A DNA stretch of 64,000 nucleotides from a virus (lineage: Duplodnaviria; Caudoviricetes): positions 23,700-87,699 of IMG/VR virus record IMGVR_UViG_3300037067_018091. The stretch is one strand, 5' to 3'. The notes beneath the pieces were generated by a model. It saw only the letters and a list, made by a program, of their open reading frames with translations, searched no databases and was not told where the DNA came from. Numbering within the stretch: position 1 is the first letter of the stretch; each line of letters starts with the position of its first letter. Both the position numbers and the translations under genes were made by a program. This document shows positions 34,991 through 54,464 of the stretch, in pieces.

Positions 34991-36259
34991 TTGGAGAAGC
35001 TTGTGAAGATATTATGGATTTCTGATAATCCGTCTAGTAACAGCGGTTACGGTAAAATCACTGCACAAACAGTTCGGCATTTAAAATCTCAAGGACATGA
35101 AATACTATTAATGGCGGGCGGCGCTCCGTTTTATAACATACCTTTTCAAGAACAGGCTTGGGAAGGTTGCCGTCTATGGTTGGTTGCAGATTATGGTAAT
35201 GCTGAACAAATAAGATATTTTTTGAATGTTGAAAAACCAGATGTCGTAGTTGCAAATGCTGATCCGCGATTTTTTGATTATCTTTTCAAATTAGATAATG
35301 AAATCCGCCGCGTTTGTCCCCTTGTTTTCTATCATCTCTGGGATGATGGACCTTTCCCAAAATTTAATGTTCCTTACTATAATAGTTGCGATCATATTAT
35401 AGCGGGATCAAAATTTACATACGAATTACTTCGTGCGAACAGTACTCCCGATACCATGCTTTCCTATGCCCCGATTGGATTTGATTCAAGTACATATCAT
35501 CCAATTTCAAAAGATGAAGTTATTGAATTTAGACAACAATTTAATCAACTTACAAATTTTGAACATGTCGATGCAAAATTTATCGCCGGTGTCGTTGCCC
35601 GCCACTCAGAGCGGAAAAATTTGTTAAGTATTATGGAGTCTTTTACAAAGTGGGCCGAAGGAAAGAAGGATGTCTTGCTTTTTGTTCATTCGCCTGGACA
35701 AGATGCGGGTCGTAGTCTTGAATACGCGATGAATAATATGTTCGCGGATAAAAAGATTATTTTAAGTAATGCTGCCCCACAGATGCAAAAGGACGATTTA
35801 GTTAATCGATTTTATAATTTTTTTGATGTAATTTTAAATCGTTCTACTGCAGAAGGTTTTGGAATGCCTATCGCAGAAGCGATGCTGGCGGGAACCCCAG
35901 CAATTACAATAGATTGTCCGGGACCTGCAGGATTGGTGGACGATTCTAATGGTTGGTTGCTTAAAACAGATGTAAAACCTTTGTTAAGTAATCAAGTTGT
36001 GCCGTTCATTTATAGTAGATATATAACGGACGAGAAATTTATTGCGGCATTAGATGAAGCATATAATAATCCAGTACTCCGTGAACAAAAGGCTGCAAAA
36101 TGTCGTCAGTTTATCATGGATAATTATTCTCTTAATGGGATGGTTAAGGGGATTGAAACGGCTTTACAAAAAGCAATTGCGAATTGGCGTAGATATCCTG
36201 AATTTACCGTTCATTCATTTCCTGCAGTTGAATTGAAGAAAGCAGAAACAACTGAATAA
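34991..36259 (+). CDS. Glycosyltransferase family 4 (GT-B)
   Basis: ILWISD..SGYG; STAEGFGMPIAEAMLAGTP; true start may be GTG at 35003. Confidence 0.9.
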   Translation: MEKLVKILWISDNPSSNSGYGKITAQTVRHLKSQGHEILLMAGGAPFYNIPFQEQAWEGCRLWLVADYGNAEQIRYFLNVEKPDVVVANADPRFFDYLFKLDNEIRRVCPLVFYHLWDDGPFPKFNVPYYNSCDHIIAGSKFTYELLRANSTPDTMLSYAPIGFDSSTYHPISKDEVIEFRQQFNQLTNFEHVDAKFIAGVVARHSERKNLLSIMESFTKWAEGKKDVLLFVHSPGQDAGRSLEYAMNNMFADKKIILSNAAPQMQKDDLVNRFYNFFDVILNRSTAEGFGMPIAEAMLAGTPAITIDCPGPAGLVDDSNGWLLKTDVKPLLSNQVVPFIYSRYITDEKFIAALDEAYNNPVLREQKAAKCRQFIMDNYSLNGMVKGIETALQKAIANWRRYPEFTVHSFPAVELKKAETTE

Positions 36260-36717
36260 TGGGTGCTTGGGGAACACGGTCATCCGAAAACGACGCTGTA
36301 CATGATCTGTTAAGCATGGCCGGCCGTAAGAATGCTCACTATGGGTTTGAGGATCCTGGAGAACTTACAAATGAACAGCTTGAGCAGTTTATTATGAATA
36401 GATTTGTAGTACCTTTACAACTTTCTAATGATGAAAAACATGTTCAAGCTGCGTTAGGCACTTTACGGAAACTTAATGAATTAATACATCCTATGCATTT
36501 TCTTGGATTAATAATTTGGGGATTTGATCGTGGCTGGACATTTAATAGAGATATTTTAACTATTGCAGATGAATCAAGTATGAAATTGATTTACGATCAA
36601 AATGAATGGTTTAGATATATTCATATGTGGGCGCATCCAAAAATTCGTCATTATCGACTTTTAAAAGAAATGTGCAAAATTAAACAAGCAATAAAGGAAA
36701 AGAATGATGGCAGATAA
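36259..36717 (+). CDS. Hypothetical protein with internal ExxVQxALG motif
   Basis: MGAWG..ENDAVHD N-terminus; DEKHVQAALGT. Confidence 0.6.
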   Translation: MGAWGTRSSENDAVHDLLSMAGRKNAHYGFEDPGELTNEQLEQFIMNRFVVPLQLSNDEKHVQAALGTLRKLNELIHPMHFLGLIIWGFDRGWTFNRDILTIADESSMKLIYDQNEWFRYIHMWAHPKIRHYRLLKEMCKIKQAIKEKNDGR

Positions 36718-37873
36718 AATTAAGGTTTTGTTCAAAGCCCCTTTTGCAGATTACAGCGGATATGCCACAATTGCTCGTAATTTGTTGATTCAACTCTATA
36801 AATTAGATAAATTTGATCTTTATCTTGAGCCAATTGTATGGATCAATTCTGGGAATCTTGAACTTCCCGAAGAAGAGAAGAAAATTATCGATGAACTTCT
36901 TGCAAAGTCTGTTCAAATTGATCCAACAGATAAAACTCTTATTCATTTTTCAATTGCAACTGAATTTTTTGGTGAAAAAAGTCCTTTTCGCAAAACAATT
37001 GGATTTACAATGATTGAGACTGATAAAACTGCGAACGGATGGGCGTGGAAATGTAATCAAATGGACGCAGTTTTTGTTCCATCCACGTTTTGCCTTGGCT
37101 CTTTTATGCAATCTAATGTCTCAGTGCCGATAAGAGTTGTACCGTTTGGGATTGATTTTGAAAAATATACGCCTGAGGGCGAAAAACTTCTTGATCTTCC
37201 TACAAAATTTAACTTTCTTACGGTTGGCCAATGGCTTCCACAAGGAGATCGTAAAAATATTATAGGCGTATTGCAAACTTTCTTGCATAATTTTAGAAAT
37301 AATCCAGATGTGGGATTAATTTTAAAGACTTATCACGTCGGCGCAGGAACTGTCGATAAATTGCAAATTGAAAATTCTATTCAACAAATTAGACAGCAAG
37401 TAGGTATTAAAAATAATGAAGGGCCCCAGATTTATTTAGTGCATGGTGCAATGAGTGAAGAAAATATGATCAAATTGTATCGTAATGCAGATGTATTTTT
37501 ACTCCCGACATGCGGTGAAGCTTGGGGAATGCCGTTAATGGAAGCTGCTGCGATGGGTCTCCCAATTATTACAACTCGAGGTACCGGTGCTGAAGCGTTT
37601 TTGAATGAAGAGCATGTGGTAATGGTTGATGCAGAATGGAAACCTATTGGAAATAGAATTTATTGGCCTCATGTTTATGAACATTATCAGCAATTGTTGA
37701 TTCCAAATATGGAAGAATTTGCCAGAATGGTTCATAGAGTTTATAAATATCCTGAAATGTCTAGAGAACAAGCAAAAAAGCAGCGGCTTGAAATGATTGA
37801 ACGTGGTTTTACTTGGAAGGCAGCCGCGGAACAACTTGCTGAGGCAATTGAGGATCTTAATGATGCGGAATAA
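36704..37873 (+). CDS. Glycosyltransferase family 4 (GT-B)
   Basis: APFADYSGYA; DRKNI; PTCGEAWGMPLMEAAAMGLP. Confidence 0.9.
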   Translation: MMADKIKVLFKAPFADYSGYATIARNLLIQLYKLDKFDLYLEPIVWINSGNLELPEEEKKIIDELLAKSVQIDPTDKTLIHFSIATEFFGEKSPFRKTIGFTMIETDKTANGWAWKCNQMDAVFVPSTFCLGSFMQSNVSVPIRVVPFGIDFEKYTPEGEKLLDLPTKFNFLTVGQWLPQGDRKNIIGVLQTFLHNFRNNPDVGLILKTYHVGAGTVDKLQIENSIQQIRQQVGIKNNEGPQIYLVHGAMSEENMIKLYRNADVFLLPTCGEAWGMPLMEAAAMGLPIITTRGTGAEAFLNEEHVVMVDAEWKPIGNRIYWPHVYEHYQQLLIPNMEEFARMVHRVYKYPEMSREQAKKQRLEMIERGFTWKAAAEQLAEAIEDLNDAE

Positions 37874-38150
37874 AATTAAGGATACTCCTAATTTTTATAA
37901 AGATATAGAATTCGGTATTAGAGATGTTGTCAAATTACTTCGAGACAACGGTATTAATACTACATGTTCTTGCGGCCATGAAATGTATGTCGAATTTGAA
38001 TGTTGTTCTTCGACTATGGTAGAGAATATTTATAATGTTTTATTTAACGCAGGATATCGTGGTTTTAGAATTAATTATGCTCTACAATGTCCTCCTGATG
38101 GGTTTGTTATACGGCGAGGAACAATTCTATTAAATAAATGGATGGAGTAA
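37860..38150 (+). CDS. Hypothetical protein with TCSCGH motif
   Basis: IEFGIRDVVKLLRDNGINTTCSCGH; ATG at 37860 chosen over track start 37797. Confidence 0.5.
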   Translation: MMRNKIKDTPNFYKDIEFGIRDVVKLLRDNGINTTCSCGHEMYVEFECCSSTMVENIYNVLFNAGYRGFRINYALQCPPDGFVIRRGTILLNKWME

Positions 38151-38151
38151 A

Positions 38152-38661
38152 TTGCAGAATAAAACTGTTTATTTAATGGTTGGGAATATCGGTACTGGAA
38201 AATCGACAACTGTTGCAAAATTAACTAAAGGAAATTTAGATAAAATTGCGGTTCTTGATACAGATGGACTTGCAATGATGTATTCTGCAAATGATTATGG
38301 ACCGCATATTTGGACTGCCGAACGTAGAAATTTATATCGTACTTCTTTGTTAAAACTTGAAGATTTAGCATTACAAAAAGGGTTTGATGTTATCGTAGAT
38401 AGTACCGCAATGTCTCGAGAATGTCGAAAATCTTTTATAGATATTGCAAAAAATAACGGTGCGCGGATAGTAGTATATCTTCATCGTACTCCAGGAGGAT
38501 TAGAGAGACGGTGTCAGGAACCACGCGGCCAAACACGTGAACTTTGGACAATAGTATATGAAGGATTTGAAAATGAGTTTGAAGAACCTTCATTAGATGA
38601 AGGAATTGATGAAATAATTAATTGTACGCGGGTGTATCATAATCATGGGATTAAATCTTAA
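38152..38661 (+). CDS. P-loop kinase (polynucleotide-kinase/AAA_33-like)
   Basis: GNIGTGKST; VIVDSTAMSRECRK; EEPSLDEGIDE. Confidence 0.75.
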   Translation: MQNKTVYLMVGNIGTGKSTTVAKLTKGNLDKIAVLDTDGLAMMYSANDYGPHIWTAERRNLYRTSLLKLEDLALQKGFDVIVDSTAMSRECRKSFIDIAKNNGARIVVYLHRTPGGLERRCQEPRGQTRELWTIVYEGFENEFEEPSLDEGIDEIINCTRVYHNHGIKS

Positions 38662-39004
38662 AAAGAACTCCAAAAAAGATGGCGAATGGTACGGTTGCGA
38701 CCTCGATGGAACTTTGGCATACCACGATAAGTGGGGCGGAATTGAACATATTGGTAAGCCGATTCCTAAAATGCTTGAAAGAGTTAAAAAATGGATTTCT
38801 GAGGGAAAGACTGTAAAAATATTTACGGCTCGCGCTGCAGAAGGTCCTGAAGCAATCAAATATGTCGAAGATTGGCTTGAAGAAAATGGTATTGGTGGCC
38901 TTGAAGTTACGAATAAAAAAGATTTTAAACTTGTTGAACTTTGGGATGATCGAGTAGTTCAAGTTAAGAAAAATACTGGCGAACGAGTTGATGGAAAAGA
39001 GTAA
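38645..39004 (+). CDS. HAD-family phosphatase (PNK 3'-phosphatase-like)
   Basis: CDLDGTLA; IFTAR; LWDDR. Confidence 0.8.
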   Translation: MGLNLKKNSKKDGEWYGCDLDGTLAYHDKWGGIEHIGKPIPKMLERVKKWISEGKTVKIFTARAAEGPEAIKYVEDWLEENGIGGLEVTNKKDFKLVELWDDRVVQVKKNTGERVDGKE

Positions 39005-39006
39005 AT

Positions 39007-39177
39007 ATGGGTTTGATTTTACCTCCAGAAGCAAGTATATATTTTCATAAAATGACTGCAAAAGAGTTGGGTATTTCAGAAGATGAATATAAAATTCAAG
39101 ATGCATTAGGATTAATTTCTTCGGTTATAGGGGTTGATTGGGGTATAAGTGACAATGGGCATGATTTTACCACCTAA
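39007..39177 (+). CDS. Small ExxIQxALG-family protein (56 aa, below cutoff)
   Basis: Translated by hand: MGLILPPEASIYFHKMTAKELGISEDEYKIQDALGLISSVIGVDWGISDNGHDFTT. Confidence 0.65.
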   Translation: MGLILPPEASIYFHKMTAKELGISEDEYKIQDALGLISSVIGVDWGISDNGHDFTT

Positions 39178-39316
39178 GATTTATAAACGGCCGATGACTG
39201 CAGACGAAATGGGCATTTCGGAAGATGAATATAAAATTCAAGAAGCATTGGGAATAATTCCTAAAATTGAAATGGTTAAATATCTTGGTAAAAGTCGAAA
39301 GTTGGTTCGAAAATGA
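39161..39316 (+). CDS. Small ExxIQxALG-family protein (51 aa, below cutoff)
   Basis: Translated by hand: MILPPKIYKRPMTADEMGISEDEYKIQEALGIIPKIEMVKYLGKSRKLVRK; ATGA-coupled to 39313. Confidence 0.7.
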   Translation: MILPPKIYKRPMTADEMGISEDEYKIQEALGIIPKIEMVKYLGKSRKLVRK

Positions 39317-39684
39317 TTTGGATAATTATATCAATTATTTTGTTGTGTATAATTTTGCATCCGCTTCAAAAGACTTTATCGTTAAGTTGGGATAAAAAGA
39401 ATACTCTTTGGGGAAATTTTGAAACTTTTATCTCTATTGTAAAACATGAAGATAGAGACATTGATTTCACATTATCAATACATCCACAATACTTCAGTTT
39501 TCAGTTTTCTTTATGGTTCGTCGCGGCAGGAATTTTTTGGAGTATGCATGGAACCCATTTAGATTGTGAACGAGATCAGGGAGAAACCGCTGCTATTGAA
39601 TTATTGAAAAGAGTATTGCAAGAAGAAAAGAATTCTTTAGAATTAACTAAAGATATTACAATTTATCTACAAAGAAAAGAATAA
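39313..39684 (+). CDS. Hypothetical membrane-anchored protein
   Basis: Hydrophobic N-terminus MIWIIISIILLCIIL. Confidence 0.55.
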   Translation: MIWIIISIILLCIILHPLQKTLSLSWDKKNTLWGNFETFISIVKHEDRDIDFTLSIHPQYFSFQFSLWFVAAGIFWSMHGTHLDCERDQGETAAIELLKRVLQEEKNSLELTKDITIYLQRKE

Positions 39685-40481
39685 TGAAAATCTCTATTTT
39701 GATCCCTACTTTAGATAATCCCGATTACGTCGAATTAGTTACAAACGCATTTCGAAAAAATACGACTAATCCATTTGAAATTCTTGTATTTGCAAATAAT
39801 ATATCTAAACAGATGAAAGAGTTAGCAAATAAATTACAATTTGATTATTTTAATGGATCGGATAAAAATAAAGGTGTTGCAGAAGCAACTAATTTTTTGG
39901 CAAAATATGCAACAGGTGATATAATATTTTATGTCGGTGACGATGTTTATTGTGTTCCTAAGTGGGATGAGATTTTAATTACAAAAATGAATCCCGAAAT
40001 ACGTTATCAATATCTTACAGGAGTTATGTTTGGGCCAACGCATAAAAATCCAATGATGCATGCACCTATTTTTTATGGTAAAACTTCGAAACAATGGAAA
40101 GAGAATGAAGAAAAATTTTTAAAAGAATGGCGTGATAGACGAACAATTAAACAAGATATAATTAGTATTTTAGGCCCAGTATTTATCCGGAAAGAATTGT
40201 GGGATGAAATTGGGGGATTCGATGAAAAATTTTATCCTGGTTTTGGGACTGATCCAGATTTAATTGCGAAAATTTATTTTGCGGCAAAAAAGAAAAATGT
40301 TCCATATGAGTTTAGAGGAGTTTGTGATTGTGGAATGTATCATTTTGAATGTATAGGAACTACTAAAATACCTGAGGGGCATGGGATTCGCAGGGATGTA
40401 CACCACGTATTTCGTAAAAAATGGGGATTATTTCCATTAGAATTACAAGCAAAATTAGGATGCGGGAAACCAATTGATTAG
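39684..40481 (+). CDS. Glycosyltransferase family 2 (GT-A)
   Basis: MKISILIPT; YVGDD; GGFDEKFYPGFGTD. Confidence 0.85.
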   Translation: MKISILIPTLDNPDYVELVTNAFRKNTTNPFEILVFANNISKQMKELANKLQFDYFNGSDKNKGVAEATNFLAKYATGDIIFYVGDDVYCVPKWDEILITKMNPEIRYQYLTGVMFGPTHKNPMMHAPIFYGKTSKQWKENEEKFLKEWRDRRTIKQDIISILGPVFIRKELWDEIGGFDEKFYPGFGTDPDLIAKIYFAAKKKNVPYEFRGVCDCGMYHFECIGTTKIPEGHGIRRDVHHVFRKKWGLFPLELQAKLGCGKPID

Positions 40482-41469
40482 AATTCTTACACATTATGCT
40501 CATGAAAGTTATCAACAAGCACTTTCTAAAATTCCAGGAGTAGAATTTTACCATGTTATCGATTCTACTGGTGTTTGGCCCGCAGATAAAAAACCTAAAT
40601 TTATTTGGCCTGAAAATGTAAGTAAACCTGATAATATAAAAGGTATTGAAGCGCGCGATATTAGAATACAGGATTTTGATTTAGTTCTTATTCACTGGCA
40701 CCCATTTATAGAGACGTTTAGTAATCTTTGGGGCGATCTTCCAGTTATCTTTCTAGAGCATACATGGCCAAAAAATAATCATCCGGGTGAAATAAACCAT
40801 TGGAAAAACGTGCGTCATGAATTTGTAGATCATACAGTATTTATTACGCTATCTTCTAAAAAAGCTTGGGACTATGAACACGATGAGAATTCTTCTTATA
40901 TTTACCATTCAATTGATGTAGATGCTTTTCCAAAGAAGATTTTGTACGATAGTAAAACAATAATGACTACTACCAACGAATTTATTACGCGCGATTGGGC
41001 ATGTGGATTTACTTTTTGGGCGAATGTCTTAGGTCTTTCTGGAAAACCTTATTTTCCAAAAGATCAAATTCAATTGTTTGGATACGGAAACGATAATATT
41101 AAACCATATGCAAAAGGACGTCGTAGTCGTGAAGAAGTTTTAGATTTATTAGTAAACGCTGGTGTATATTTTAACCCTTCCCAAATGTCGCCTATACCGA
41201 TGTCATTATTAGAAGCGGCTGCTGTAGGGACGCCAATTGTTTCAACTGCAAAATGTGAAGTAGGTAGATTATTTAAAAATAAAATTCATGGAATTATTTC
41301 AGATGACATCGTTGAACTTCGTTGTGGTATAAAAGAATTATTAAATCATCTCGAACACGCAAAAGTAATGGCTGAAAACGCGCGTGAAGTAGTACAAGTT
41401 AATTTCAGTCCTGAAAAATTTCAAGAAAATTGGTTGAAAGTATTTAAAAAGGTTATGTATGACAAATAA
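40474..41469 (+). CDS. Glycosyltransferase family 4 (GT-B)
   Basis: YFNPSQMSPIPMSLLEAAAVGTPIV. Confidence 0.8.
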   Translation: MIRILTHYAHESYQQALSKIPGVEFYHVIDSTGVWPADKKPKFIWPENVSKPDNIKGIEARDIRIQDFDLVLIHWHPFIETFSNLWGDLPVIFLEHTWPKNNHPGEINHWKNVRHEFVDHTVFITLSSKKAWDYEHDENSSYIYHSIDVDAFPKKILYDSKTIMTTTNEFITRDWACGFTFWANVLGLSGKPYFPKDQIQLFGYGNDNIKPYAKGRRSREEVLDLLVNAGVYFNPSQMSPIPMSLLEAAAVGTPIVSTAKCEVGRLFKNKIHGIISDDIVELRCGIKELLNHLEHAKVMAENAREVVQVNFSPEKFQENWLKVFKKVMYDK

Positions 41470-41893
41470 TTTTAAAAGCCGGAAATTTTGGACACTTATT
41501 GTAGTGTACATAGCTTCGTTAGGGTTAACTTTAGGAAAACCCGCGTTAATTGATTCAACTACTGTATTATTTAATTTTTGGACGATGATTGCAGGGATTT
41601 TCTTTGGGACAGATATTTATGGTGGATATCAAACTGCAAAAAATAACGGCGGCGACCTGCTTGATTATGGAATTCAAAGTAAAAAATTTATAGTTTTTCT
41701 AGGACTTTTATTCACATCATTTATTCTCACATGGGTGGGTAAAGTTGAATCCGCAGCAGATTTATTTACTTTTTGGGGACAGCTTTGCGGGCTATATTTT
41801 ACTGGAAACGTTGTAGAAAAACAACTTAAAGGGCGTGCACAACGAGTTTCTAAAGCATTTAAAGAACAGAGCGCCAAAATCCCGATTGATTAA
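41459..41893 (+). CDS. Four-TM membrane protein with duplicated halves, holin candidate
   Basis: FKSRKFW..FNFWTMIAGIFFG and IQSKKFI..FTFWGQLCGLYFTG; basic C-tail. Confidence 0.45.
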   Translation: MTNNFKSRKFWTLIVVYIASLGLTLGKPALIDSTTVLFNFWTMIAGIFFGTDIYGGYQTAKNNGGDLLDYGIQSKKFIVFLGLLFTSFILTWVGKVESAADLFTFWGQLCGLYFTGNVVEKQLKGRAQRVSKAFKEQSAKIPID

Positions 41894-41921
41894 ATAGGAG
41901 TATCCCGCTCTTAATTAACTG

Positions 41922-41951
41922 CAGGTACCTGGAAGAAATTTCAGGTACCTG
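41922..41951 (+). terminator. Hairpin with GAAA tetraloop built from two CAGGTACCTG palindromes
   Basis: CAGGTACCTG-GAA-GAAA-TTT-CAGGTACCTG; followed by TTGTATAAT (TATAAT at 41955-41960). Confidence 0.6.
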
Positions 41952-41967
41952 TTGTATAATATATTGT

Positions 41968-43726: not shown

Positions 43727-43745
43727 AAGCAAAATACGTAAAACC

Positions 43746-45808: not shown

Positions 45809-46725
45809 TGAAAGTACATGTATTAGGAAAATGGTGTTCTCCTTGGCAAAATGGTAAACTTATTTATGAGGAAGCACGCCGGCAAGGGTTAAATGCAACT
45901 TCTGGTATTCTCGAACAACCTCATAAAGAAATTTTACGTATTATTGATCAACAGAAACCAGATTGGGTTTTTTTAACCGGTTCTCGAACACTTCCAGTTG
46001 AAATTCTTGAACAAATAAAACAGCGCGCTAAATTACTTCTTTGGGACGCAGATGCGAATAGTAATGATCGTCGAAAAACCTGGGAAGAACGTTTACATAT
46101 TCCTGATATAATTATTACTTCTGTTTTAGCAATTGCACAAGAATATAAAAATAAAACAAATAAAATTGTTTGGATGCCTCAATATTATGATAATACATAT
46201 TATCGATCAAGTTTACCTGAAAACCGCCAATTTGATGTAGTATTTCTTGGTGGGTTGGATGTGCATCGAAAAGAAATTTTAAATAGACTCTCTAAAAAAT
46301 TTAAAGTCGCATATCATTGGCATATGTTTGGCGAAGATATGGTAGATTCTTACAATCAGGCTAAAATTGCAATTGGTATGAATTGGCTTCAAACGTCATA
46401 TGAATATTCAGGATCGTTTACAACCTCGGATAGAATATTTAAAGCGCTCGGTTGCGGGATATTTTATTTGGGAAATCCTATTAAAAATATTGAATTGTTA
46501 TTTAATCCTGGCGAACATTTAGATATTTATGATGGTACATATGAAAATCTTGAACAAAAATTTCAATATTGGTTAGAGCATGAGAAAGAACGTCTTGAGA
46601 TTGCAAAACAAGGGCAGGAAGAAGTTTTTAAAAATCATACATTAAAAGTTCGAATACATCAATACTGGCGACTTATGGAAGACCCAAATTATACATCGCC
46701 ATTTAAACAAGGTTTACATGATTAG
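45808..46725 (+). CDS. CgeB-like glycosyltransferase
   Basis: DVVFLGG; YNQAKIAI..SDRIFKALGCGIFYL..WLEHEKERLEIA. Confidence 0.8.
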   Translation: MKVHVLGKWCSPWQNGKLIYEEARRQGLNATSGILEQPHKEILRIIDQQKPDWVFLTGSRTLPVEILEQIKQRAKLLLWDADANSNDRRKTWEERLHIPDIIITSVLAIAQEYKNKTNKIVWMPQYYDNTYYRSSLPENRQFDVVFLGGLDVHRKEILNRLSKKFKVAYHWHMFGEDMVDSYNQAKIAIGMNWLQTSYEYSGSFTTSDRIFKALGCGIFYLGNPIKNIELLFNPGEHLDIYDGTYENLEQKFQYWLEHEKERLEIAKQGQEEVFKNHTLKVRIHQYWRLMEDPNYTSPFKQGLHD

Positions 46726-47605
46726 ATTCGCACACTATTCTCCAAATAAATGGCATCAATTATTTTTAGATTATCTAAAAGGATTTGATCCAGTTATAAA
46801 TTCATGCGATAAAAATTGTGAATTTATTTGGTGTGGGAGTGCATCTATGTTAGAAAAAGCATTCCCTGCAAGTATCAAATATAAAAAACCTATTATATGT
46901 TGGGTTTGGGATATCCCAAATATTTTTCCTGAACATGCGATGCGTACACAAATGTATGTAAATACACTTAAGCAATGTACAAAAGTTATTGCAGCCAGTA
47001 AATTTACACAAACGATATTGGTGAATTGTGGAATAGATGCGGATCAAATATATTTTTATGCGGATACGCGCGATCTTAAAAAAGGACAAAAGAAGAATCA
47101 AGTAATTCAAATTAGTCGATTTACTCCGCATAAAAGATTTGAAATTGCTCAAAAAGTAACAAAAGAGTTAAATATCCCACTTGTTAATGTAGGAATTGTA
47201 AACGATCAAGAATTTTATTATTATAGTCGACTTCAAAAAGAAGCAGGAAATAATGTAATATTTAAACCTGATCTTTCTCGAGAAGATATGATAAAAGAAT
47301 TACAATCTTCTCAAGTATTAATTACTTCATCAATATTTGAAGGATGGGGGCTCTCACCTATAGAAGCGTTATTCTGTGATGTTCCCGTTATTATAAGTGA
47401 TATTCCTATATTTCGAGAACAATATGGTGATAGTGTTCTTTACCATAATCCATTTAATCCTGATAGTCTTAAAGAACAGTTAAAAAAATTACTTGCAGAT
47501 GAAAGTCTTCAAAATAAGATTATACAAAAAGGACGCGAATGCGTTAACGAATATACTCCTGAAAGATTTGTAGAACGATGGCTGAAAATCGTAAACCAGT
47601 TGTAG
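46718..47605 (+). CDS. Glycosyltransferase family 4 (GT-B)
   Basis: ISRFTPHKR; SSIFEGWGLSPIEALFCDVP. Confidence 0.9.
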   Translation: MIRFAHYSPNKWHQLFLDYLKGFDPVINSCDKNCEFIWCGSASMLEKAFPASIKYKKPIICWVWDIPNIFPEHAMRTQMYVNTLKQCTKVIAASKFTQTILVNCGIDADQIYFYADTRDLKKGQKKNQVIQISRFTPHKRFEIAQKVTKELNIPLVNVGIVNDQEFYYYSRLQKEAGNNVIFKPDLSREDMIKELQSSQVLITSSIFEGWGLSPIEALFCDVPVIISDIPIFREQYGDSVLYHNPFNPDSLKEQLKKLLADESLQNKIIQKGRECVNEYTPERFVERWLKIVNQL

Positions 47606-48552
47606 TATTTTTATGTCTTGCGGATTTTGCTGCTTCTGCTTATAATGCATGCCAGGCAGTTAATCGTGTTGGACAGATTGAAGCACATCATATAGTACTT
47701 TCTCAACCTCCTTACGATTTTCCTGCAGAAGTTATTTGTCCTCTTATGTATAAAAAAATTGATCCAACTACTGCAATTAATTACAGTAAAGTTAAAGAAT
47801 TGATTGATAAAGCAGATTTAATTCATTGTTGGAATAACGAACGTGAAGGATTTCCGCTTTTTGCTAACCTTCAAATCCCATATAAAAAAGTTAAGTCGTA
47901 CACGTTTACGGGCACTAGTTATAGAATTGGACATACGGTCGCAAATCAAAATATTCGAAATTATCGTGATGGATCCAGAGTAATTGTGCAGGATCCTTTA
48001 TTTTTAAAATATTTGAATGAATTTCCCGTTGAATATATTCCACATGCGGTTGATACTGATTTACTTAAACCTAATAAAGATAAGGTGCCTAATACAATAG
48101 GCTTCTATAATAAAGCTGATCAAGAATATAAAAATTATATTCAATTGTTGAAACAATTACTCCAAAAGAGTTATTATCCAGAATGGAAAATGGTTGCAGG
48201 AACGACGGCATCTTGGTGGGATAGATTACAAGAATTATCTAGATGTATGTTTTTCTTTCAAAATTTATCTCAAACATTAGGAAATCCCGGACGATCTACT
48301 TGGGAAGCAATGGCAATGGGCGTACCGACGTTTACATATATAAGTCCTGATGTGTTTAAATTAACTTCTCGGTTTGATGGTATACCTGTCCAATCTGTAA
48401 CTGTTTCAACATTAGAAAATGTTTTAAAAATAGTATTAAATTGTACGGACTACTCACAATTATCTAAAAATTCACGTGAATGGGTCATAAACAATTTAGG
48501 GTATACAAGAGTAGGTAAAGAATATACTAAATTGTTTGAAGATTTATTATGA
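47578..48552 (+). CDS. Glycosyltransferase, GT-B fold (GT4-like)
   Basis: YIPHAVDTDL; GNPGRSTWEAMAMGVP. Confidence 0.75.
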   Translation: MAENRKPVVVFLCLADFAASAYNACQAVNRVGQIEAHHIVLSQPPYDFPAEVICPLMYKKIDPTTAINYSKVKELIDKADLIHCWNNEREGFPLFANLQIPYKKVKSYTFTGTSYRIGHTVANQNIRNYRDGSRVIVQDPLFLKYLNEFPVEYIPHAVDTDLLKPNKDKVPNTIGFYNKADQEYKNYIQLLKQLLQKSYYPEWKMVAGTTASWWDRLQELSRCMFFFQNLSQTLGNPGRSTWEAMAMGVPTFTYISPDVFKLTSRFDGIPVQSVTVSTLENVLKIVLNCTDYSQLSKNSREWVINNLGYTRVGKEYTKLFEDLL

Positions 48553-48893
48553 ATAAAAAAGAAGAAAAAATACAAGAAGCTCTTGGAACCCTTCTTCAAG
48601 CAGCATGGCGAGAATATTTAAAAACTATAGATTCAATTAAAAATTTGCAAAAAGAAATTAATCGTATTCAAAGAATTATACGATTCATAGCTAAATGCAA
48701 TAGACTTACTGTAGAAGCACAACTTTTATGTGCAAGGACAATACAAATACAGACACATATCGAGAAGGTACAGATAGATGCCCGTGTAAATTTGTTAAAA
48801 ATTATTAAAAAGATTTATGGAAAAGATATTGTTGTACGTTTTATTAATAATTATTGTTGTAAACTTAGTAATGGGATTACATTAAAAAAATGA
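48549..48893 (+). CDS. Small ExxIQxALG-family protein
   Basis: MNKKEEKIQEALGTLL. Confidence 0.65.
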   Translation: MNKKEEKIQEALGTLLQAAWREYLKTIDSIKNLQKEINRIQRIIRFIAKCNRLTVEAQLLCARTIQIQTHIEKVQIDARVNLLKIIKKIYGKDIVVRFINNYCCKLSNGITLKK

Positions 48894-49678
48894 TTTCTAT
48901 TGCGATTGTATCATTAAATAATCCGGAATATTTGGATTTAACCTTACAAAGTATTGTTCAAAATACTTCAGGGACATATGAAATTTTAATTCATTTAAAT
49001 AGTTGTACATCTGAAGATAAACAAATCGTCGATAAGTGGCAGGGAAAAGCAAATATTGCAATATGTACTACAAGTATTGAAAATGAATTCTGTGCAGCAC
49101 CTTTAAATCGATTATTTAATAGATACGCAAAAGGCGAATATTTTATTTTTCTAGATGACGATATATATGTGGCACCGGGATGGGATAAAGCACTTATTGA
49201 AGCAATTCCAAATCAAAAATATTGGTGGCTTAGTCCAACTTTATATTATCCTAAATATTTACACCAGCCTGCACGATTTAATATTCAATCTTTTGGGATA
49301 ACTCCAAAAACATTTAATAAGACTGCATTCAATCAATATTATTTAGACTTACGCAATATAACAGAAGATAATAAAGGATGGATTAGTGGCGCCGGTTTAA
49401 TTTCACGTGAAGTCTGGAATGAAATAGGGGGATATGATGAACAATTTAAACTCGGTGAAGATGTAGATATAAAAGCAAAAATTTGGAAAGCTGCAACAAC
49501 CGCAGGAGAATCTTATGATTTTCGAAGTATCGCAGATTCGATAGTATATCATTTTGGACATTCGGGGTCTTCAAAAAGGCCGGTAGTAATTAATCCATTT
49601 GAGCTATTTCGACAAAAATGGGGTATGAGTATTACGGAATTTTATAAAAAAGCTTTGCCCGAAATTCAATATTTATGA
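48890..49678 (+). CDS. Glycosyltransferase family 2 (GT-A)
   Basis: ISIAIVSLN; FIFLDDD; IGGYDEQFKLGED. Confidence 0.85.
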   Translation: MISIAIVSLNNPEYLDLTLQSIVQNTSGTYEILIHLNSCTSEDKQIVDKWQGKANIAICTTSIENEFCAAPLNRLFNRYAKGEYFIFLDDDIYVAPGWDKALIEAIPNQKYWWLSPTLYYPKYLHQPARFNIQSFGITPKTFNKTAFNQYYLDLRNITEDNKGWISGAGLISREVWNEIGGYDEQFKLGEDVDIKAKIWKAATTAGESYDFRSIADSIVYHFGHSGSSKRPVVINPFELFRQKWGMSITEFYKKALPEIQYL

Positions 49679-49687
49679 GGCATGTAA

Positions 49688-50656
49688 ATGATCTATAAAT
49701 TGAAACCATTGTCATGTGAAAAAAATTATCTTGTAGATGCGATAGATAGTATATATAAACACATTGATTCAACAATATTTCAAGAAACCGCCGGCACAAT
49801 ACTTGTAGGAAATATACAGGCGATGATAAGTGCAGATCATTATTTCTCAGGATTGAGAGATAATGTTCCTAATACGATTACATTTTGTCATTGTAAACCA
49901 AAAGAAACTATTGAAAACGCTATACACCGGTTAGAAAAAGCAGAACAATCTGTTGTGTTACTTCCATATATATTTCATAAGATTGCAAAACCAAAAAAGC
50001 ATCAACTATTTATATTTCTTATTAGTGAAGATCCTGCGATCGTTTTTGCACGTATGATGGCAAATAGTGTGATTGAGGTTTATCCCAAATTTAAGCGCCC
50101 TGAAGATTTTCCAAAATCTTGTTATGTAGGTCCGGGGGTACATGTTGCAGAAGACGTAGAAATTGGTGAAAATGTAAGATTAATTGGAAACATTTTTATT
50201 TATAGTGGCGTAAAGATAGGAAATAACGTTATCGTTAAACCGAATACAGTTATTGGCGGCGAAGGATTTGAAAAAGATTATGATCCAAAAATGGATTGCA
50301 TATGGCATTGGCCGCATATGGCAAGTGTAATTATTGAAGATAATGTTCAAATTGGGTCGTGTGTTTGTATTGATCGCGGAATGTTTAAGGATACTATTAT
50401 TCATCGAGGGGCAATGTTAGATAATCTTATTCATGTTGCACATTCTGTTGAAATTGGTGAAAATGCACGGATAGTTGCATCTACTATGATTGCAGGCAGT
50501 GTAAAAATTGGCGCCCGCGCGTGGGTGGCCACGTCGATAATAAAGAATGGAATTACTCTTGGTGATGAATGTTATATAGGTCTTGGATCAGTTGTAGTTA
50601 AAGATATTCCCGCAGGCAAGTTGGCATTTGGAGTTCCCGCAAAGGTGAAAGAATGA
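49688..50656 (+). CDS. LpxD-like hexapeptide-repeat acyltransferase
   Basis: VIGGEGFE, VIIEDNVQIGSCVCIDRG, LDNLIHVAHSVEIG left-handed beta-helix repeats. Confidence 0.8.
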   Translation: MIYKLKPLSCEKNYLVDAIDSIYKHIDSTIFQETAGTILVGNIQAMISADHYFSGLRDNVPNTITFCHCKPKETIENAIHRLEKAEQSVVLLPYIFHKIAKPKKHQLFIFLISEDPAIVFARMMANSVIEVYPKFKRPEDFPKSCYVGPGVHVAEDVEIGENVRLIGNIFIYSGVKIGNNVIVKPNTVIGGEGFEKDYDPKMDCIWHWPHMASVIIEDNVQIGSCVCIDRGMFKDTIIHRGAMLDNLIHVAHSVEIGENARIVASTMIAGSVKIGARAWVATSIIKNGITLGDECYIGLGSVVVKDIPAGKLAFGVPAKVKE

Positions 50657-51573
50657 AAATTTTAATTACGGGTGGCACAGGTAGTTTAGGTTCGTGTATT
50701 GTAAATAGGTTGGTTAATGAAACCGATCATACTATTATTGTATTTTCTCGTGGCGAACAAAAACAGTTTCAGCAACGTTTAAAATATCAAAGTAATCTTG
50801 CAGTTGCAGATAAACAACAACGTATTTATTATGTTTTAGGAGATGTTTGTAATTCGAACGATGTTTTTAAAGTGTTTAATTTACACGCTCCGGATATTGT
50901 TATACACACTGCTGCACAAAAGCATGTTCGAATTTGCGATGAAAACCCTGAACAAGCGGTACGAACAAATATTTTAGGCACAATTAATGTTGCGGATGCA
51001 GCATTACAATATAATACTGTTATGTGCATGGTATCAACGGATAAAGCAGTAAATCCAACAACGTTGTACGGTATGACTAAAGCACTTGCTGAAAAACATC
51101 TTAATAATATTGCCATGCATCATCCAAAATTATTTTGCGGAGTTCGATATGGGAATGTACTTAATTCTGCCGGATCTTTAATTCCATTTTTTCGTGAAAA
51201 AGCAAAAATATCCGGGGATACTTTTTATGTCACCCATCGAGAAATGACTCGATTTTTCATTTCATTAGAAAAAGCGGTCGATTTAATTTGTCAAACTTTA
51301 ACTTATACTACAGGAAAGAAAGTATTCCCACATAAAACCATTGATTTATTTGGGACTGATGGTATATTTGTTATCCCAATGCTTAAATCGGTTAAAATTA
51401 TGCATCTTGCGGAATATTATGCAAAATTTAATAATGGTAGTATTAAGGTAATGCTTCCTTATCCTACAGAAAAGCTTCATGAAGAGATGATGACAAATTA
51501 TTCATCGAAAGATCATGTTATGAGTAAAAAATTATTAGAAAAAATGTTAGAAGAAGAAAATCTTTCAATATAA
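50653..51573 (+). CDS. NDP-sugar 4,6-dehydratase (PseB/FnlA/CapD family)
   Basis: ITGGTGSLG; HTAAQKHV; STDKAVNPTTLYGMTK; RYGNVLNSAGS; MTRFF. Confidence 0.9.
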   Translation: MKILITGGTGSLGSCIVNRLVNETDHTIIVFSRGEQKQFQQRLKYQSNLAVADKQQRIYYVLGDVCNSNDVFKVFNLHAPDIVIHTAAQKHVRICDENPEQAVRTNILGTINVADAALQYNTVMCMVSTDKAVNPTTLYGMTKALAEKHLNNIAMHHPKLFCGVRYGNVLNSAGSLIPFFREKAKISGDTFYVTHREMTRFFISLEKAVDLICQTLTYTTGKKVFPHKTIDLFGTDGIFVIPMLKSVKIMHLAEYYAKFNNGSIKVMLPYPTEKLHEEMMTNYSSKDHVMSKKLLEKMLEEENLSI

Positions 51574-51574
51574 G

Positions 51575-51745
51575 ATGACTGAAGAAGAAGAGAAAATACA
51601 AGTTGCGCTCGGTACTGGACAATATTGTATTGAGTGTAAAAAAATGTTATTAGTTACAAATTTAAATAATAGTGCAATTTGTAATTCATGTTTAATCAAT
51701 GGCCCTATTTGCAACTTACAAAAATATTTAAATGGTTTAGCATGA
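51575..51745 (+). CDS. Small ExxIQxALG-family protein with Cys pairs (56 aa, below cutoff)
   Basis: Translated by hand: MTEEEEKIQVALGTGQYCIECKKMLLVTNLNNSAICNSCLINGPICNLQKYLNGLA; ATGA-coupled to 51742. Confidence 0.7.
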   Translation: MTEEEEKIQVALGTGQYCIECKKMLLVTNLNNSAICNSCLINGPICNLQKYLNGLA

Positions 51746-52866
51746 TTCCACTTTTTAAAGTATATATGCCGGCCACTGCAGGTTATTTAGTGCAGAAAGT
51801 TATGTACTCAGGATATTTAGCTGAGGGGAAATGCGTTCAATCTTTTGAAGACGAACTAAAAAAGTTTTTAAAATGCGATAATGTAATTACAGTTAATTCT
51901 TGTACAAGTGCAATTCATCTCGCGTTAAAATTATTTGGAGCAAGTGAATTTAATAATTATGTATTATCAACTCCGGTAACATGCGTGGCTTCAAATGCTT
52001 CAATTGTTAATCTTGGCGCAACACCTATTTGGGTTGATGTAGATCCTAAGCATGGCATGATTACTTCTAAAACTCTTCGCAGAGCATATAATGAATGTCG
52101 TTATAAAGGATTAGATTTTAAAATTGCGGCACTTATATATGTATGCTGGGGCGGTGACATCGGGCCACTTAAAGAAGTTTCAGAGGTATGTAAAGAATTG
52201 GGGATTCCACTAATCGTAGATGCGGCACAAGCTTTTGGAGGAATTCCAAAAAATTTGGCAGATATTATATGCTATTCATTCCAAGCTATAAAGCATATTA
52301 CAACGGGTGACGGTGGCGCAATGCAATTTAAAGATACAGATTTAATGCAACGTGCAATTAACCTTAAATGGTTTGGAATTAATAGGGACAGCTTTAGAAC
52401 ATCGAACGGTGAAATTAATTGGTCATCGGATATACCAGAAATTGGATTTAAATTTCATATGAATAATATTGCTGGAGCGATTGGAACGACACAACTTCAA
52501 GATTCGATATTAAAATCGCGCCTTCGTAGTTATAATAATAATGATGTATTTTTAACTAATTCTTTACGAGGTATTTTAGAGCGTTCTTGGACGGGGGCGT
52601 CGACTTCTTGGGTATCTACATTTCTTTGTGAAGATCCAATTCAATTGATGGAATATTTAAATAAATGTAAAATACATACATCGCAAATGCATATCAATAA
52701 TAATATTTATACGGGATTTAACGATGCGCGTACGCTCACTCCTCTTACGGGCGCTGAAGAATTTATGCAACACCATATTTGTATTCCATGTGGTTGGTGG
52801 TTGAAACCTGAAGATCTTACATATATTATAAAAACGGTGAAAAATTTTTATGGCAAATCCATTTAA
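51742..52866 (+). CDS. DegT/DnrJ/EryC1/StrS PLP-dependent sugar aminotransferase
   Basis: MIPLFKV start (ATGA coupling, preferred to track 51688); NSCTSAIHLA; VDAAQAFG; SFQAIKHITTGDGG. Confidence 0.92.
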   Translation: MIPLFKVYMPATAGYLVQKVMYSGYLAEGKCVQSFEDELKKFLKCDNVITVNSCTSAIHLALKLFGASEFNNYVLSTPVTCVASNASIVNLGATPIWVDVDPKHGMITSKTLRRAYNECRYKGLDFKIAALIYVCWGGDIGPLKEVSEVCKELGIPLIVDAAQAFGGIPKNLADIICYSFQAIKHITTGDGGAMQFKDTDLMQRAINLKWFGINRDSFRTSNGEINWSSDIPEIGFKFHMNNIAGAIGTTQLQDSILKSRLRSYNNNDVFLTNSLRGILERSWTGASTSWVSTFLCEDPIQLMEYLNKCKIHTSQMHINNNIYTGFNDARTLTPLTGAEEFMQHHICIPCGWWLKPEDLTYIIKTVKNFYGKSI

Positions 52867-53638
52867 AGATATGGAACGAAAATATCAAGAAAGTTTTCGT
52901 ATACAAATTGATTGGGCATCTCTCTCAAATGAACGGTCGATAGAAGTACCGTGGCTTCTTAATCGTTTAAAAACAATTAAACCCGGAACACTTTTAGACG
53001 TTGGGTTTGCGGGAAGTTTTTATCAAAATGAAATTTTAGATTTAGGAATCGATTATACCGGTCTAGATTTCGATCTTTCCCGAATAACTGGACAATCTCT
53101 TTACGTCGGCGCCGATCGAAAATCTGCGTGGAAAGAATTGATTAAACGATTTAAATGGATTCAAGGGGATATAGTTAATTTACCTGAGGAACTTGCGCAA
53201 CAACAATTTGATATAGTTATGGCCATTTCAACAATAGAACACATTGTTCCCGCAGGATACGCATCAAATTATGAGAATTTCCAGGCTGATCTTAAAGCTG
53301 TTGCCAATATGAAGACTTTAGTTAAAAAAGATGGGAGTTTACTGTTAACTTTTCCGGTCGGGAAAACTGCGTATTTCTTTAATCCGGATATAAATCGAAA
53401 TACAGAAATTTTACGTAAAACGGGCAAGTTTAAAGAAGGCGTCCATGATCAAATGTTTTACGACTCAGGACGTATTAAACAAATAGTCGGTGATTGGACA
53501 ATTGTAGAGAAAAAATTTTACAAAAAGGACGATAAACAGTGGAATGAATGCTCCGAAGAAGCCGCATGTTCTGTTGAACATTTAACGTCGGAAGCAACCA
53601 CAGTTTGTTTATTGGAAATTAAAAATGAAACAACGTAA
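52850..53638 (+). CDS. Class I SAM-dependent methyltransferase
   Basis: RSIEVPW; LLDVGFAGS; ISTIEHI; LVKKDGSLLLTFP. Confidence 0.75.
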   Translation: MANPFKDMERKYQESFRIQIDWASLSNERSIEVPWLLNRLKTIKPGTLLDVGFAGSFYQNEILDLGIDYTGLDFDLSRITGQSLYVGADRKSAWKELIKRFKWIQGDIVNLPEELAQQQFDIVMAISTIEHIVPAGYASNYENFQADLKAVANMKTLVKKDGSLLLTFPVGKTAYFFNPDINRNTEILRKTGKFKEGVHDQMFYDSGRIKQIVGDWTIVEKKFYKKDDKQWNECSEEAACSVEHLTSEATTVCLLEIKNETT

Positions 53639-54464
53639 GTTATGGGCAGGGCCATGGGTAGGTGAGTTCGGGTGGGAACTATTTTGTTGGCAAGCATATT
53701 TACGTAAAATTGCCAAACAATACGATCACATAACTGTTTGTTCACGCCCTGGAAAAGAATTTCTTTATCAAGATTTTGCACATAAATTTTTACCTTTTAC
53801 CCCGCCCTCAGAAGACGTTACGATGTGGGCGAATTATGGTTTAGATGAAAATTATATAAATAGAATATTTGCTCCTCCTTTAGATACTACTTGGTTGGAT
53901 CCCCGAAAATTTCTTTCGGCCTTGTTGCAAGAACGTAAAAAACTTTCAGGTCTTACGGTTTTAGAGATGTTTACGCCACCCGATCAAGAATTTATCTCTT
54001 ACGGGAATCCAAATAAAGATAAAGCATTTGATATTGTCATTCATGCGCGGAATCGTACGGATAAAAAAGCATGGCCTGAGAAAAATTGGCCAATAGAAAA
54101 TTGGGATGCTTTAGTTGCGCATTTTAGTAATATGCGTATCGCATGCGTAGGACATCTATCAGCATCTAATGGCATAGATGGAACAATTGATTTACGCGGT
54201 ATTCCATTAAATGAGGTAGCTGATATTCTCGCCAGTAGTAAACTTTGTGTAGGTTGTTCTGATGGACTTTTAAATTTTGCAGCTTTATGTAAAACACCTA
54301 GATTAATTTGGACAATTAAATCTGAAGCAGAAAAGAATATAGATAGACACAGTAAATGCTGGAATCCTTTTAATGTGCCCGTACAAATGATTGTGCATGA
54401 TACTTGGCGCCCATCCCCATTACAAGTTATTAAAGCAATTGAGGAATATTTTGAACAAAGCTGA
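53625..54464 (+). CDS. GT9-like (heptosyltransferase-like) glycosyltransferase
   Basis: GEFGWE; KNWPIENWDAL; IDLRGIPLNEVADILASSKLCVGCSDGLLNFAALCKTP. Confidence 0.65.
   Translation: MKQRKLWAGPWVGEFGWELFCWQAYLRKIAKQYDHITVCSRPGKEFLYQDFAHKFLPFTPPSEDVTMWANYGLDENYINRIFAPPLDTTWLDPRKFLSALLQERKKLSGLTVLEMFTPPDQEFISYGNPNKDKAFDIVIHARNRTDKKAWPEKNWPIENWDALVAHFSNMRIACVGHLSASNGIDGTIDLRGIPLNEVADILASSKLCVGCSDGLLNFAALCKTPRLIWTIKSEAEKNIDRHSKCWNPFNVPVQMIVHDTWRPSPLQVIKAIEEYFEQS

Follow-up and report, generated by a model that had tools for sequence, protein, structure and literature searches.

The DNA examined here is a 64,000-nucleotide stretch of an uncultured tailed phage (Duplodnaviria; Caudoviricetes), called the window below, which forms the last 64 kb (positions 23,700 to 87,699) of the 87,699-bp linear IMG/VR record IMGVR_UViG_3300037067_018091 (G000), a fragment rated about 30% complete by CheckV. 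Its positions 34991-54464 hold a glycosylation island with genes for eleven glycosyltransferases (GTs) and four sugar-nucleotide or tailoring enzymes, which is probably a phage cytoplasmic protein O-glycosylation system decorating the outward-facing proteins of its own virion. All called genes of the record and nearly all open reading frames (ORFs) of at least 100 amino acids are on the plus strand, the GC content is about 34%, and a clear Shine-Dalgarno sequence is missing before many genes. Virion genes lie upstream of the island, including those for the major head protein (1954-2943, phrog_2522) and the tail sheath (8251-9654), and PHROGs gave no name for most tail and fibre proteins. The presence of head, tail sheath and endolysin genes in the window identifies the phage, by gene content, as a myovirus. 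Its capsid protein has its closest cultured match in Bacillus phage G, at 38% identity, and a megablast search of 50,697 phage records with the complete island found no cultured kin at the DNA level (zero matches).

A search of IMG/VR with the capsid protein retrieved 20 loci. The island is syntenic in four relatives: G002 (130 kb), G005 (168 kb, 90% complete), G004 and L038, the last being an NCBI metagenome contig of 183.5 kb that holds the downstream half of the island and an orthologue (P0124) of its first gene. Its start is visible after the tail genes in G002, G005 and G004; here it lies 117 nt past the endolysin gene, with equal placement in relatives, and the helicase boundary is kept in G002, G005 and L038:

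34302-34874, plus strand: endolysin (phrog_315, E 2e-31), the left boundary, which closes the virion/lysis module
54698-56170, plus strand: ResIII/SNF2-type helicase (PF04851, 70 bits), the right boundary, 54-65% identical in relatives

Over about 19.5 kb all genes of the island are on the plus strand and their junctions mostly overlap by 1-28 nt, with gaps longer than 70 nt only at 39005-39312, 41894-41967 and 51574-51687. The first of these is the only long non-coding gap (308 nt) and is partly overlapped by a minus-strand ORF of 151 amino acids (38651-39106) that is probably spurious. A consensus scan of the island for promoters and terminators gave counts no higher than those in shuffled sequence. 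The preliminary description of this DNA, made from the sequence alone, had presented the island as co-oriented, mostly translationally coupled and placed directly after the virion/lysis module, which agrees with the confirmed ORFs and starts and with the measured overlaps. It had also counted eleven GTs of four types, and the count stands: nine exceed curated Pfam cut-offs (26-27 bits for PF00534 and PF13692, 25 bits for PF13524), and the products of 47578 and 53625, which have no Pfam or NCBIfam match, are recognised by fold. Genes without a name are designated by their start position:

34991-36259, plus strand: GT4a, first gene of a conserved GT4 pair (PF00534, 46 bits; retaining GT-B type, EX7E motif)
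36704-37873, plus strand: GT4b, second gene of the conserved pair (PF13692, 48 bits; EX7E)
39684-40481, plus strand: GT2 with GT-A fold (PF00535, 46 bits; xDD kept; 43% identical to a G002 gene)
40474-41469, plus strand: GT4c, third conserved core GT (PF00534, 45 bits; catalytic Glu conserved)
41968-42954, plus strand: Glyco_trans_1_2 (CgeB-type) GT-B (PF13524, 79 bits; 52% identical in G002, 33% in G005)
44027-45085, plus strand: GT4d (PF00534, 59 bits; EX7E; 46% identical in G002, 38% in G005)
45808-46725, plus strand: second Glyco_trans_1_2 (CgeB-type) GT (PF13524, 83 bits; 36% identical in G005)
46718-47605, plus strand: GT4e (PF00534, 95 bits; EX7E)
47578-48552, plus strand: GT4-like GT-B, assigned by fold (33% identical to a G005 island gene)
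48890-49678, plus strand: second GT2, with a DDD motif (PF00535, 50 bits)
53625-54464, plus strand: short GT9-like GT-B of a mostly viral family, assigned by fold

The term CgeB-type denotes membership of PF13524 and not a comparison with CgeB of B. subtilis; a pattern search of IMG/VR with the 45808 protein found nothing. Catalytic-type residues, whose loss from most of the GTs had been named beforehand as grounds for giving up a virion target, are retained: EX7E is complete in 34991, 36704, 44027 and 46718, the second Glu is invariant in the alignments of 40474 and 47578, and the Asp-Asp (xDD) columns are invariant in those of both GT2s. A hydrophobic segment is absent from all GTs, in line with the earlier remark that none shows an obvious membrane anchor. 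Regarding the gene list as a whole, the preliminary calls of GTs held, but the four sugar-nucleotide genes and about 12 cargo ORFs had been overlooked.

GT4a, whose true start is probably the GTG at 35003, was modelled with AlphaFold2 at a predicted local distance difference test score (pLDDT) of 91.6, and the model superposes on GT4 structures with TM-scores of 0.65-0.77, that is, as a two-Rossmann GT-B fold. Its best match in both sequence and fold is B736L of chlorovirus NY-2A (3oy2, TM-score 0.72-0.77), at only 18% identity; the function of B736L is unproven, and the match agrees with a theme of cytoplasmic glycosylation by viral enzymes but is no proof of the acceptor. For 47578, an ESM Atlas model of the exact protein superposes on GT1/GT4 clusters with TM-scores of 0.80-0.84. 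The 53625 protein, modelled with AlphaFold2 from a 42-sequence alignment (pLDDT 94.3), has its best Foldseek matches in the GT9 heptosyltransferases WaaF (1psw) and WaaC (2h1f), a Veillonella GT9 enzyme (3tov) and TibC (4rap), the top five matches having TM-scores of 0.46-0.58 at 12-16% identity, and it is about 60 residues shorter than WaaC, which a profile search against the PDB also found (E 0.006). Some of its 206 collected homologues carry PF01075 (about 10% of those listed) or are named heptosyltransferase. Because its modelled fold agrees with GT9 enzymes and the protein itself has no PF01075 match, it is termed GT9-like and is not filed as a GT9 member. A Pfam scan of the island saw no heptose-synthesis genes.

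Four genes at 49688-53638 would supply and tailor sugars:

49688-50656, plus strand: left-handed beta-helix sugar N-acyltransferase (Hexapep, 75 bits; NeuD/PglB/VioB family, E 9e-26)
50653-51573, plus strand: UDP-GlcNAc 4,6-dehydratase family protein of the PseB/FlaA1/CapE/PglF type (PF02719, 244 bits)
51688-52866, plus strand: DegT-family sugar 4-aminotransferase of the PseC/PglE/CalS13 type (PF01041, 199 bits)
52850-53638, plus strand: S-adenosylmethionine-dependent methyltransferase, DUF268-like (PF08241 and PF03269); L038 has a gene of this type at the corresponding place

The best PDB match of the dehydratase is FlaA1/PseB (2gn4, E 3e-39), followed by FnlA, CapE and PglF, and the aminotransferase matches 4xau (E 3e-38) and PglE (1o61, E 1e-27). 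Both resemble the first enzymes named for pseudaminic acid, with E 1e-56 for PseB and E 9e-51 for PseC, at 192 bits against an equivalog cut-off of 408 and 173 bits against a cut-off of 424, respectively. Moreover, the island has no NeuB/PseI-type synthase and no cytidylyltransferase, and its acyltransferase is of the beta-helix type, not GNAT. As the PseB and PseC cut-offs are missed and a nonulosonate synthase is absent, the predicted route leads from UDP-GlcNAc to a 4-N-acylated 2-acetamido-2,4,6-trideoxyhexose, and the product is likely of the bacillosamine type and not pseudaminic acid. The methyltransferase probably methylates a sugar. Besides its family match, the acyltransferase scores 160 bits with TIGR01853, below the cut-off, and resembles LpxD (3eh0, E 4e-26) over residues 147-318, a likeness confined to its C-terminal beta-helix half, the N-terminal 140 amino acids having no known match.

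Comparison of the relatives separates a conserved core from a variable periphery. The core consists of GT4a, GT4b, GT4c, one CgeB-type GT and GT4d, which are contiguous in this order in G002. GT4a orthologues are 43-60% identical in G002, G005 and G004, those of GT4b 45-65% in the relatives, and GT4c, 40-64% identical in G002, G005 and G004, directly follows GT4b there. The remainder differs: G002 carries an extra Glyco_trans_1_2 gene, an RmlD-like reductase, an SDR protein, a GNAT protein and a methyltransferase; G005 carries five methyltransferases, further GTs and homing endonucleases; and L038 carries a PIG-L deacetylase, an FdtA-type isomerase and two beta-helix acyltransferases. A core with a variable periphery is the pattern expected, at the level of gene content, under diversifying selection on glycan structure. 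Homing-endonuclease genes of the NUMOD3 and Vsr/DUF559 types also occur among the glycosylation genes of relatives (L022:389-967 in G002; L024:8846-9619 and 11069-11773 in G005) and are another source of island rearrangement.

The GT4a/GT4b pair extends beyond this lineage. The GT4a family is small: a search of 5.8 billion proteins found 73 members at E<=1e-10, nearly all of them unnamed and from metagenomic phage-like contigs, and an alignment-based search of IMG/VR with GT4a returned six loci only. Members at 27-31% identity sit on contigs of 87-264 kb, and in all three contigs examined (L047, L048 and L049) a GT4b homologue directly follows GT4a; in L047 and L048 the pair is preceded by sugar-nucleotide genes and followed by baseplate and fibre genes. 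Against the 50,697 phage records, tblastn with GT4a gave 17 matches. In the cultured Flavobacterium phage vB_FspM_immuto (hereafter immuto), the adjacent gp181 and gp180 are homologous to GT4a (26%, E 4e-34) and GT4b (29%, E 4e-33). After this pair come a GT2, aminotransferases, a methyltransferase, an acetyltransferase of the NeuD/PglB type, an epimerase and more GTs. The island of immuto differs in its length of about 11 kb, in not adjoining tail genes and in the 26-29% identity of its pair to the present one.

A candidate acceptor emerges from the virion proteins, in which the tripeptide Ser-Gly-Ser (SGS) is more over-represented than any other:

1435-32032, plus strand: proposed acceptor set, 41 SGS in virion proteins

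The 41 occurrences in the virion module compare with a mean of 6.0 after shuffling and with maxima of 14-16 across shuffles. Upstream of the island, G005 has 33 against a shuffled mean of 4.2 and G002 has 46 against 7.4, so that SGS is enriched 6-8-fold in the virion modules of three members of the lineage. The remaining proteins of G002 (5 against 6.2) and G005 (14 against 7.8) stay within the shuffle range, at about one to two times the mean; the rest of the present record has 10 against 3.3, several of these being just upstream of the window in unannotated, maybe structural, proteins. Twelve related tripeptides, among them SGT, TGS, SAS, SSS, GSG, SGG and SNS, show no enrichment. The 51 SGS sites are spread over 31 different nonamers and draw on both Ser codon boxes, which places the selection at the protein level; a role of SGS as a DNA motif is ruled out by the codon diversity.

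The carriers of SGS are the putative decoration protein (1435-1932), the sheath (8251-9654), an 850-amino-acid protein (17415-19967) and the fibre or baseplate-periphery proteins (26327-32032). The major head protein has zero, here and in nearly all relatives. The product of 1435-1932, 165 amino acids long and encoded just before the major head protein, in a position matching the decoration gene of phage G (gp26), is by this analogy probably a capsid decoration protein, and every one of its orthologues in L001-L012 has one or two SGS, mostly two, at positions that differ between two clades. Such positional turnover suits a transferable modification site and not a structural requirement. Beyond the lineage, the outer fibre proteins beside the pair contain nine SGS in L048 and six in L047, with zero in the inner baseplate proteins, and the tail spikes and neighbouring proteins of immuto contain 33 against 7.4, with zero in 12.5k amino acids of its non-structural region. 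An SGS excess is lacking in the controls, namely the distant capsid relatives L014-L017 and phage G (1 against 2.5), the latter a weak negative control taken from a 10-60 kb stretch with the fibres outside it. The relatives showing no excess (L014-L017, L019 and L020) are fragments of 10-25% that end short of the island position, which makes GT absence there uninformative.

The same observations admit a mixed or other target, in which only the pair or the core acts on the virion and the variable GTs have a product of their own (for instance a glycolipid, a free oligosaccharide, a glycoside of a small molecule or a glycan on a non-virion protein of phage or host), or in which SGS marks another modification or a folding motif that has nothing to do with the island. 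This is quite unlikely, even though only two to five of the eleven GTs are conserved alongside the SGS signal, the fold neighbours of GT4a include small-molecule GTs (MshA, BshA and a pterin glucosyltransferase), and SGS is often flanked by hydrophobic residues in a beta-turn-like setting. Against a division of targets speaks the array itself, a single block of overlapping genes that share one orientation and one sugar pathway, whereas a fold requirement is at odds with the turnover of site positions while one or two sites are kept per orthologue, and with the lack of enrichment of the turn-forming SGT, SGG, GSG and SNS.

Glycans built for the cell surface would call for export, and the preliminary description had recognised no flippase, polymerase or initiating transferase. 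This remains so in a hydropathy scan of the whole record and relatives for a polytopic flippase, polymerase, ligase or polyprenyl-phosphate transferase, which used no family-specific hidden Markov models and predicted at most five transmembrane segments in any protein of the present record (MgtC), four in G005 and three in G002 (75% complete). O-antigen conversion systems (GtrABC, Wzy/Iap) and Wzx/Wzy loci are like the island in the variable GT and sugar-gene content between relatives; unlike them, the island is a co-oriented late array with no lysogeny genes seen in the regions examined, and the same scan revealed no GtrA/GtrB/GtrC-like, Wzx, Wzy, WaaL or polyprenyl-phosphate transferase-like membrane protein. 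The earlier judgement that a protein target on the virion fits better than O-antigen conversion is indirectly supported by this lack of polytopic proteins and by the virion SGS excess.

Remodelling of the host envelope would, however, dispense with a dedicated exporter, if the GTs acted at the inner membrane face on lipid A-core or an undecaprenyl-linked glycan that host MsbA, Wzx or ABC exporters then carried outwards, giving a late surface change that could, for instance, block adsorption of progeny or competitors. WaaC, WaaF and WaaG are soluble or peripheral GT-B enzymes, and LPS (lipopolysaccharide)-core enzymes are the best fold matches of 53625. For a soluble phage GT that acts on a glycopolymer of the host, the prophage enzyme TarP sets a precedent. 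In addition, the 49688 acyltransferase matches LpxD best, annotators name related phage genes RfaG or WcaA, and the GT sets of cyanophages have been read in this way (PMC12801897). Such a target is nevertheless unlikely: it leaves unexplained the virion-confined SGS excess common to the pair-carrying phages, the GT4a family is found almost only on phage-like contigs, and the genes follow directly and in the same orientation on virion and lysis genes. Its two enzymatic hints are also limited, the LpxD match covering the beta-helix half only and the GT9-like gene being absent from G002 and G005, which retain the island.

DNA hypermodification, with the GTs glycosylating a modified base so as to evade restriction, is highly improbable. 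The island does abut the replication module, and within the window positions 60706-62800 encode QueD/PTPS, a FolE2-type GTP cyclohydrolase and a phosphoribosyltransferase after DnaB and primase, 6 kb downstream; in the relative L038 the corresponding stretch (16551-19514) continues with QueC. PF20706 ('GT4 in conflict systems') is above its cut-off for 36704 and 46718, and poly-glycosylated cytosines occur in RB69 and DLP3 (PMC13326640). Yet published DNA glycosylation routes begin with a thymidylate-synthase homologue or with a methyltransferase and TET (PMC13326640; bioRxiv 10.1101/2023.12.21.572611), and neither thymidylate synthase (PF00303) nor TET/JBP (PF12851) has a match at E<=1 in G000, G001, G002, G004 and G005 (for PF00303 also in G003), the control genomes giving matches. 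The earlier failure to see a hydroxymethylase in the window extends in this way to the whole record and its relatives. Moreover, the DNA of immuto, with its homologous GT pair and sugar genes, has been published as containing only dA, dC, dT and fdPreQ1 by liquid chromatography with ultraviolet detection and tandem mass spectrometry, and no glycosylated base, in a study of DNA and not of virion glycans. Eleven GTs and a bacillosamine-type pathway far exceed any known DNA glycan, and the PF20706 matches, limited to the generic C-terminal domain, do not outscore PF00534 or PF13692. The QueD, FolE2 and phosphoribosyltransferase set looks like a preQ0/7-deazaguanine pathway, as in immuto, and the DNA or tRNA chemistry of the lineage is, on these genes, more likely of the 7-deazaguanine type; a canonical TGT/DpdA (PF01702) was not found in G000, which stops at position 64000 of the window, nor in G002 and G005, and QueD/FolE2 may serve the modification of DNA or of tRNA. 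Pterin glycosylation, considered for the combination of a BGluT fold match with PTPS and GCH1 genes, was rejected, the fold likeness being generic to GT4 and the relative continuing with QueC.

Returning to glycosylation of the phage's own virion, the GT4a/GT4b pair would prime Ser within Ser-Gly-Ser turns of freshly synthesised proteins of the sheath, the decoration, the baseplate periphery and the fibres. The other nine GTs would then lengthen the chain step by step, using nucleotide sugars of the host as well as those made by the phage, with the methyl- and acyltransferases tailoring it. O-antigen loci suggest, by analogy, that the variable genes of the island would give each relative a glycan of its own, and the resulting coat would probably shield or tune the particle surface. 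Several points weigh against this interpretation. The virion glycans are predicted from sequence; the fold neighbours of GT4a are generic soluble retaining GT4s (MshA, BshA and HepE), none of which is a proven protein O-glycosyltransferase; and the likenesses to GT9 enzymes, RfaG and LpxD would fit an LPS-core target as well. LPS cores, too, are assembled by soluble GTs at the inner membrane face, so missing anchors are by themselves compatible with a host-surface target. As for the motif, five of the nine SGS of the 850-amino-acid protein lie in an internal repeat, NYVDN[AI]-SGS-[IC], present in at least five copies and hence not independent, part of the immuto count comes from repetitive fibre N-termini, and the link between SGS and the GTs is drawn from three phage lineages with no clean negative case.

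A broader proposal is put forward tentatively, as possible though short of probable: that the phage-specific GT4a/GT4b pair and an SGS sequon constitute a widespread, hitherto undescribed O-glycosylation system, shared by unrelated myoviruses including the cultured Flavobacterium phage, in which up to about ten further, rapidly diversifying enzymes build a lineage-specific glycan with a bacillosamine-type sugar. The glycan would then amount to a variable 'serotype' of environmental phages, jumbo phages included.

Apart from the glycan genes, the island contains about 12 ORFs, of which four encode membrane proteins (39313, 41459, the MgtC protein at 45075 and the PQ-loop-like protein at 45530):

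36259-36717, plus strand: small inserted ORF whose ExxxQxALG motif is internal, not present in the islands of relatives
37797-39684, plus strand: cargo block of a small ORF, a kinase, a HAD-motif protein and a protein with an N-terminal transmembrane segment, with no counterpart in the G002 and G005 islands
38152-38661, plus strand: AAA_33/Zeta-type kinase, with a weak PNK-3'Pase match and a homologue elsewhere in G002
38645-39004, plus strand: small protein of 119 amino acids with a HAD-type DLDGT motif, overlapping the kinase
39313-39684, plus strand: protein with an N-terminal transmembrane segment, by hydropathy
41459-41893, plus strand: inserted small protein with two transmembrane segments, by hydropathy
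42929-44045, plus strand: four inserted small ORFs, three with an N-terminal ExxxQxALG, absent from the islands of relatives
45075-45808, plus strand: membrane cassette of an MgtC-family protein (five transmembrane segments; PF02308, 122 bits) and a 92-amino-acid PQ-loop/SemiSWEET-like protein with three
48549-48893, plus strand: small ORF with an N-terminal ExxxQxALG, by motif

Since the five core GT genes are contiguous in G002, the small ORFs of the present phage are insertions, and on comparative grounds they are classed, together with the kinase, the MgtC protein and the PQ-loop protein, as inserted cargo and not as pathway members. The kinase and the DLDGT protein (38152-39004) resemble a split polynucleotide kinase-phosphatase and may serve the large tRNA set of the phage, not sugars. 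The ExxxQxALG motif is common to seven small ORFs, within 36259-36717, 42929-44045, 48549-48893, 54391-54717 and 56167-56481, mostly at the very N-terminus; in 36259, 43671 and 54391 it lies downstream of the called start, and the true starts are probably later. These ORFs have no counterpart in the G002 or G005 islands and look like inserted cassettes. Regarding the membrane cassette, the protein with three transmembrane segments matches PQ-loop at E 2e-4 and NF037968 at 24 bits, both below cut-off. An MgtC gene with a small protein of three transmembrane segments also occurs in G005 (reverse complement, 123079-123878), in an unrelated place, the small proteins having no detectable mutual similarity, and the two may form a mobile two-gene membrane cassette. 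As the missing transporter the pair was rejected, the cassette being absent from the islands of relatives, MgtC lying elsewhere in G005 and the SemiSWEET match being far below cut-off.

To our knowledge, mycobacteriophages, with one to four transferases, are the only phages in which chemical analysis has shown phage enzymes to glycosylate the virion, and they offer the closest experimentally shown system. It was reportedly described for Che8, Corndog and Myrna by Freeman et al. in Cell Host Microbe in 2023 (cited, for example, in PMC12619734). The likeness lies in soluble phage GTs beside structural genes and in cytoplasmic O-glycans on the phage's own capsid or tail with no export machinery, as proposed here. 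The mycobacteriophages differ in having one to four GTs and in carrying their glycans on the C-terminal ends of capsid and tail-tube subunits, whereas the present island has eleven GTs with an amino-sugar pathway, and a dispersed tripeptide on outer tail, sheath and decoration proteins, with none on the major head protein. With GT4a as the sole query, tblastn found no mycobacteriophage at E<=1e-3. Chloroviruses make capsid glycans by means of virus-encoded cytoplasmic GTs and methyltransferase domains, but they have a eukaryotic host and carry atypical N-linked glycans on the major capsid protein.

Among bacterial systems, GtfA/GtfB of serine-rich repeat adhesins, the heptosyltransferases TibC/Aah and the flagellin Pse/Leg islands use soluble GT-B enzymes to modify Ser of nascent or folded proteins before export and provide a mechanistic analogy only. 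As in GtfA/GtfB, an adjacent pair of GT4-type genes would start the chain and other GTs extend it, and the flagellin islands have PseB/PseC-type sugar genes, as here, TibC being a fold match of 53625. The links to these systems are weak (Gtf1 at E 1.5e-4 over 57 residues; TibC at a TM-score of 0.46), and the present island has no Maf and no nonulosonate synthase, nor was a DUF1975 domain detected. Both members of the phage pair have EX7E, unlike GtfB, which is non-catalytic. Regarding gene number, eleven GTs are many but not a record, as the cyanomyovirus S-SCSM2R has 13 (PMC12801897), and the 'moraphages', with predicted Bacteroidota hosts, share four core GT orthogroups (PMC12619734). Compared by description only, both are likewise large aquatic phages with many GT genes, but published accounts relate their GTs to the cell wall or to DNA and describe neither a contiguous island nor an acceptor motif.

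The novelty lies in the size of the island and the way it is organised, in the candidate priming pair, in the tripeptide link and in a cultured phage for tests. The occurrence of the pair and the motif in cultured immuto, whose DNA chemistry is published, makes the hypothesis directly testable. If it is true, the field gains candidates, so far lacking, for the acceptor motif (Ser-Gly-Ser) and for the pair of priming enzymes, as well as soluble enzymes for sequon-directed protein glycoengineering. Self-glycosylation would then reach large myoviruses from the environment, whose hosts are probably Bacteroidota, and its known complexity would rise to an eleven-enzyme pathway with a rare diamino sugar. 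A glycan coat that varies would matter for recognition between phage and host, for the stability of the particles, for their aggregation in aquatic systems and for the recognition of phages by antibodies.

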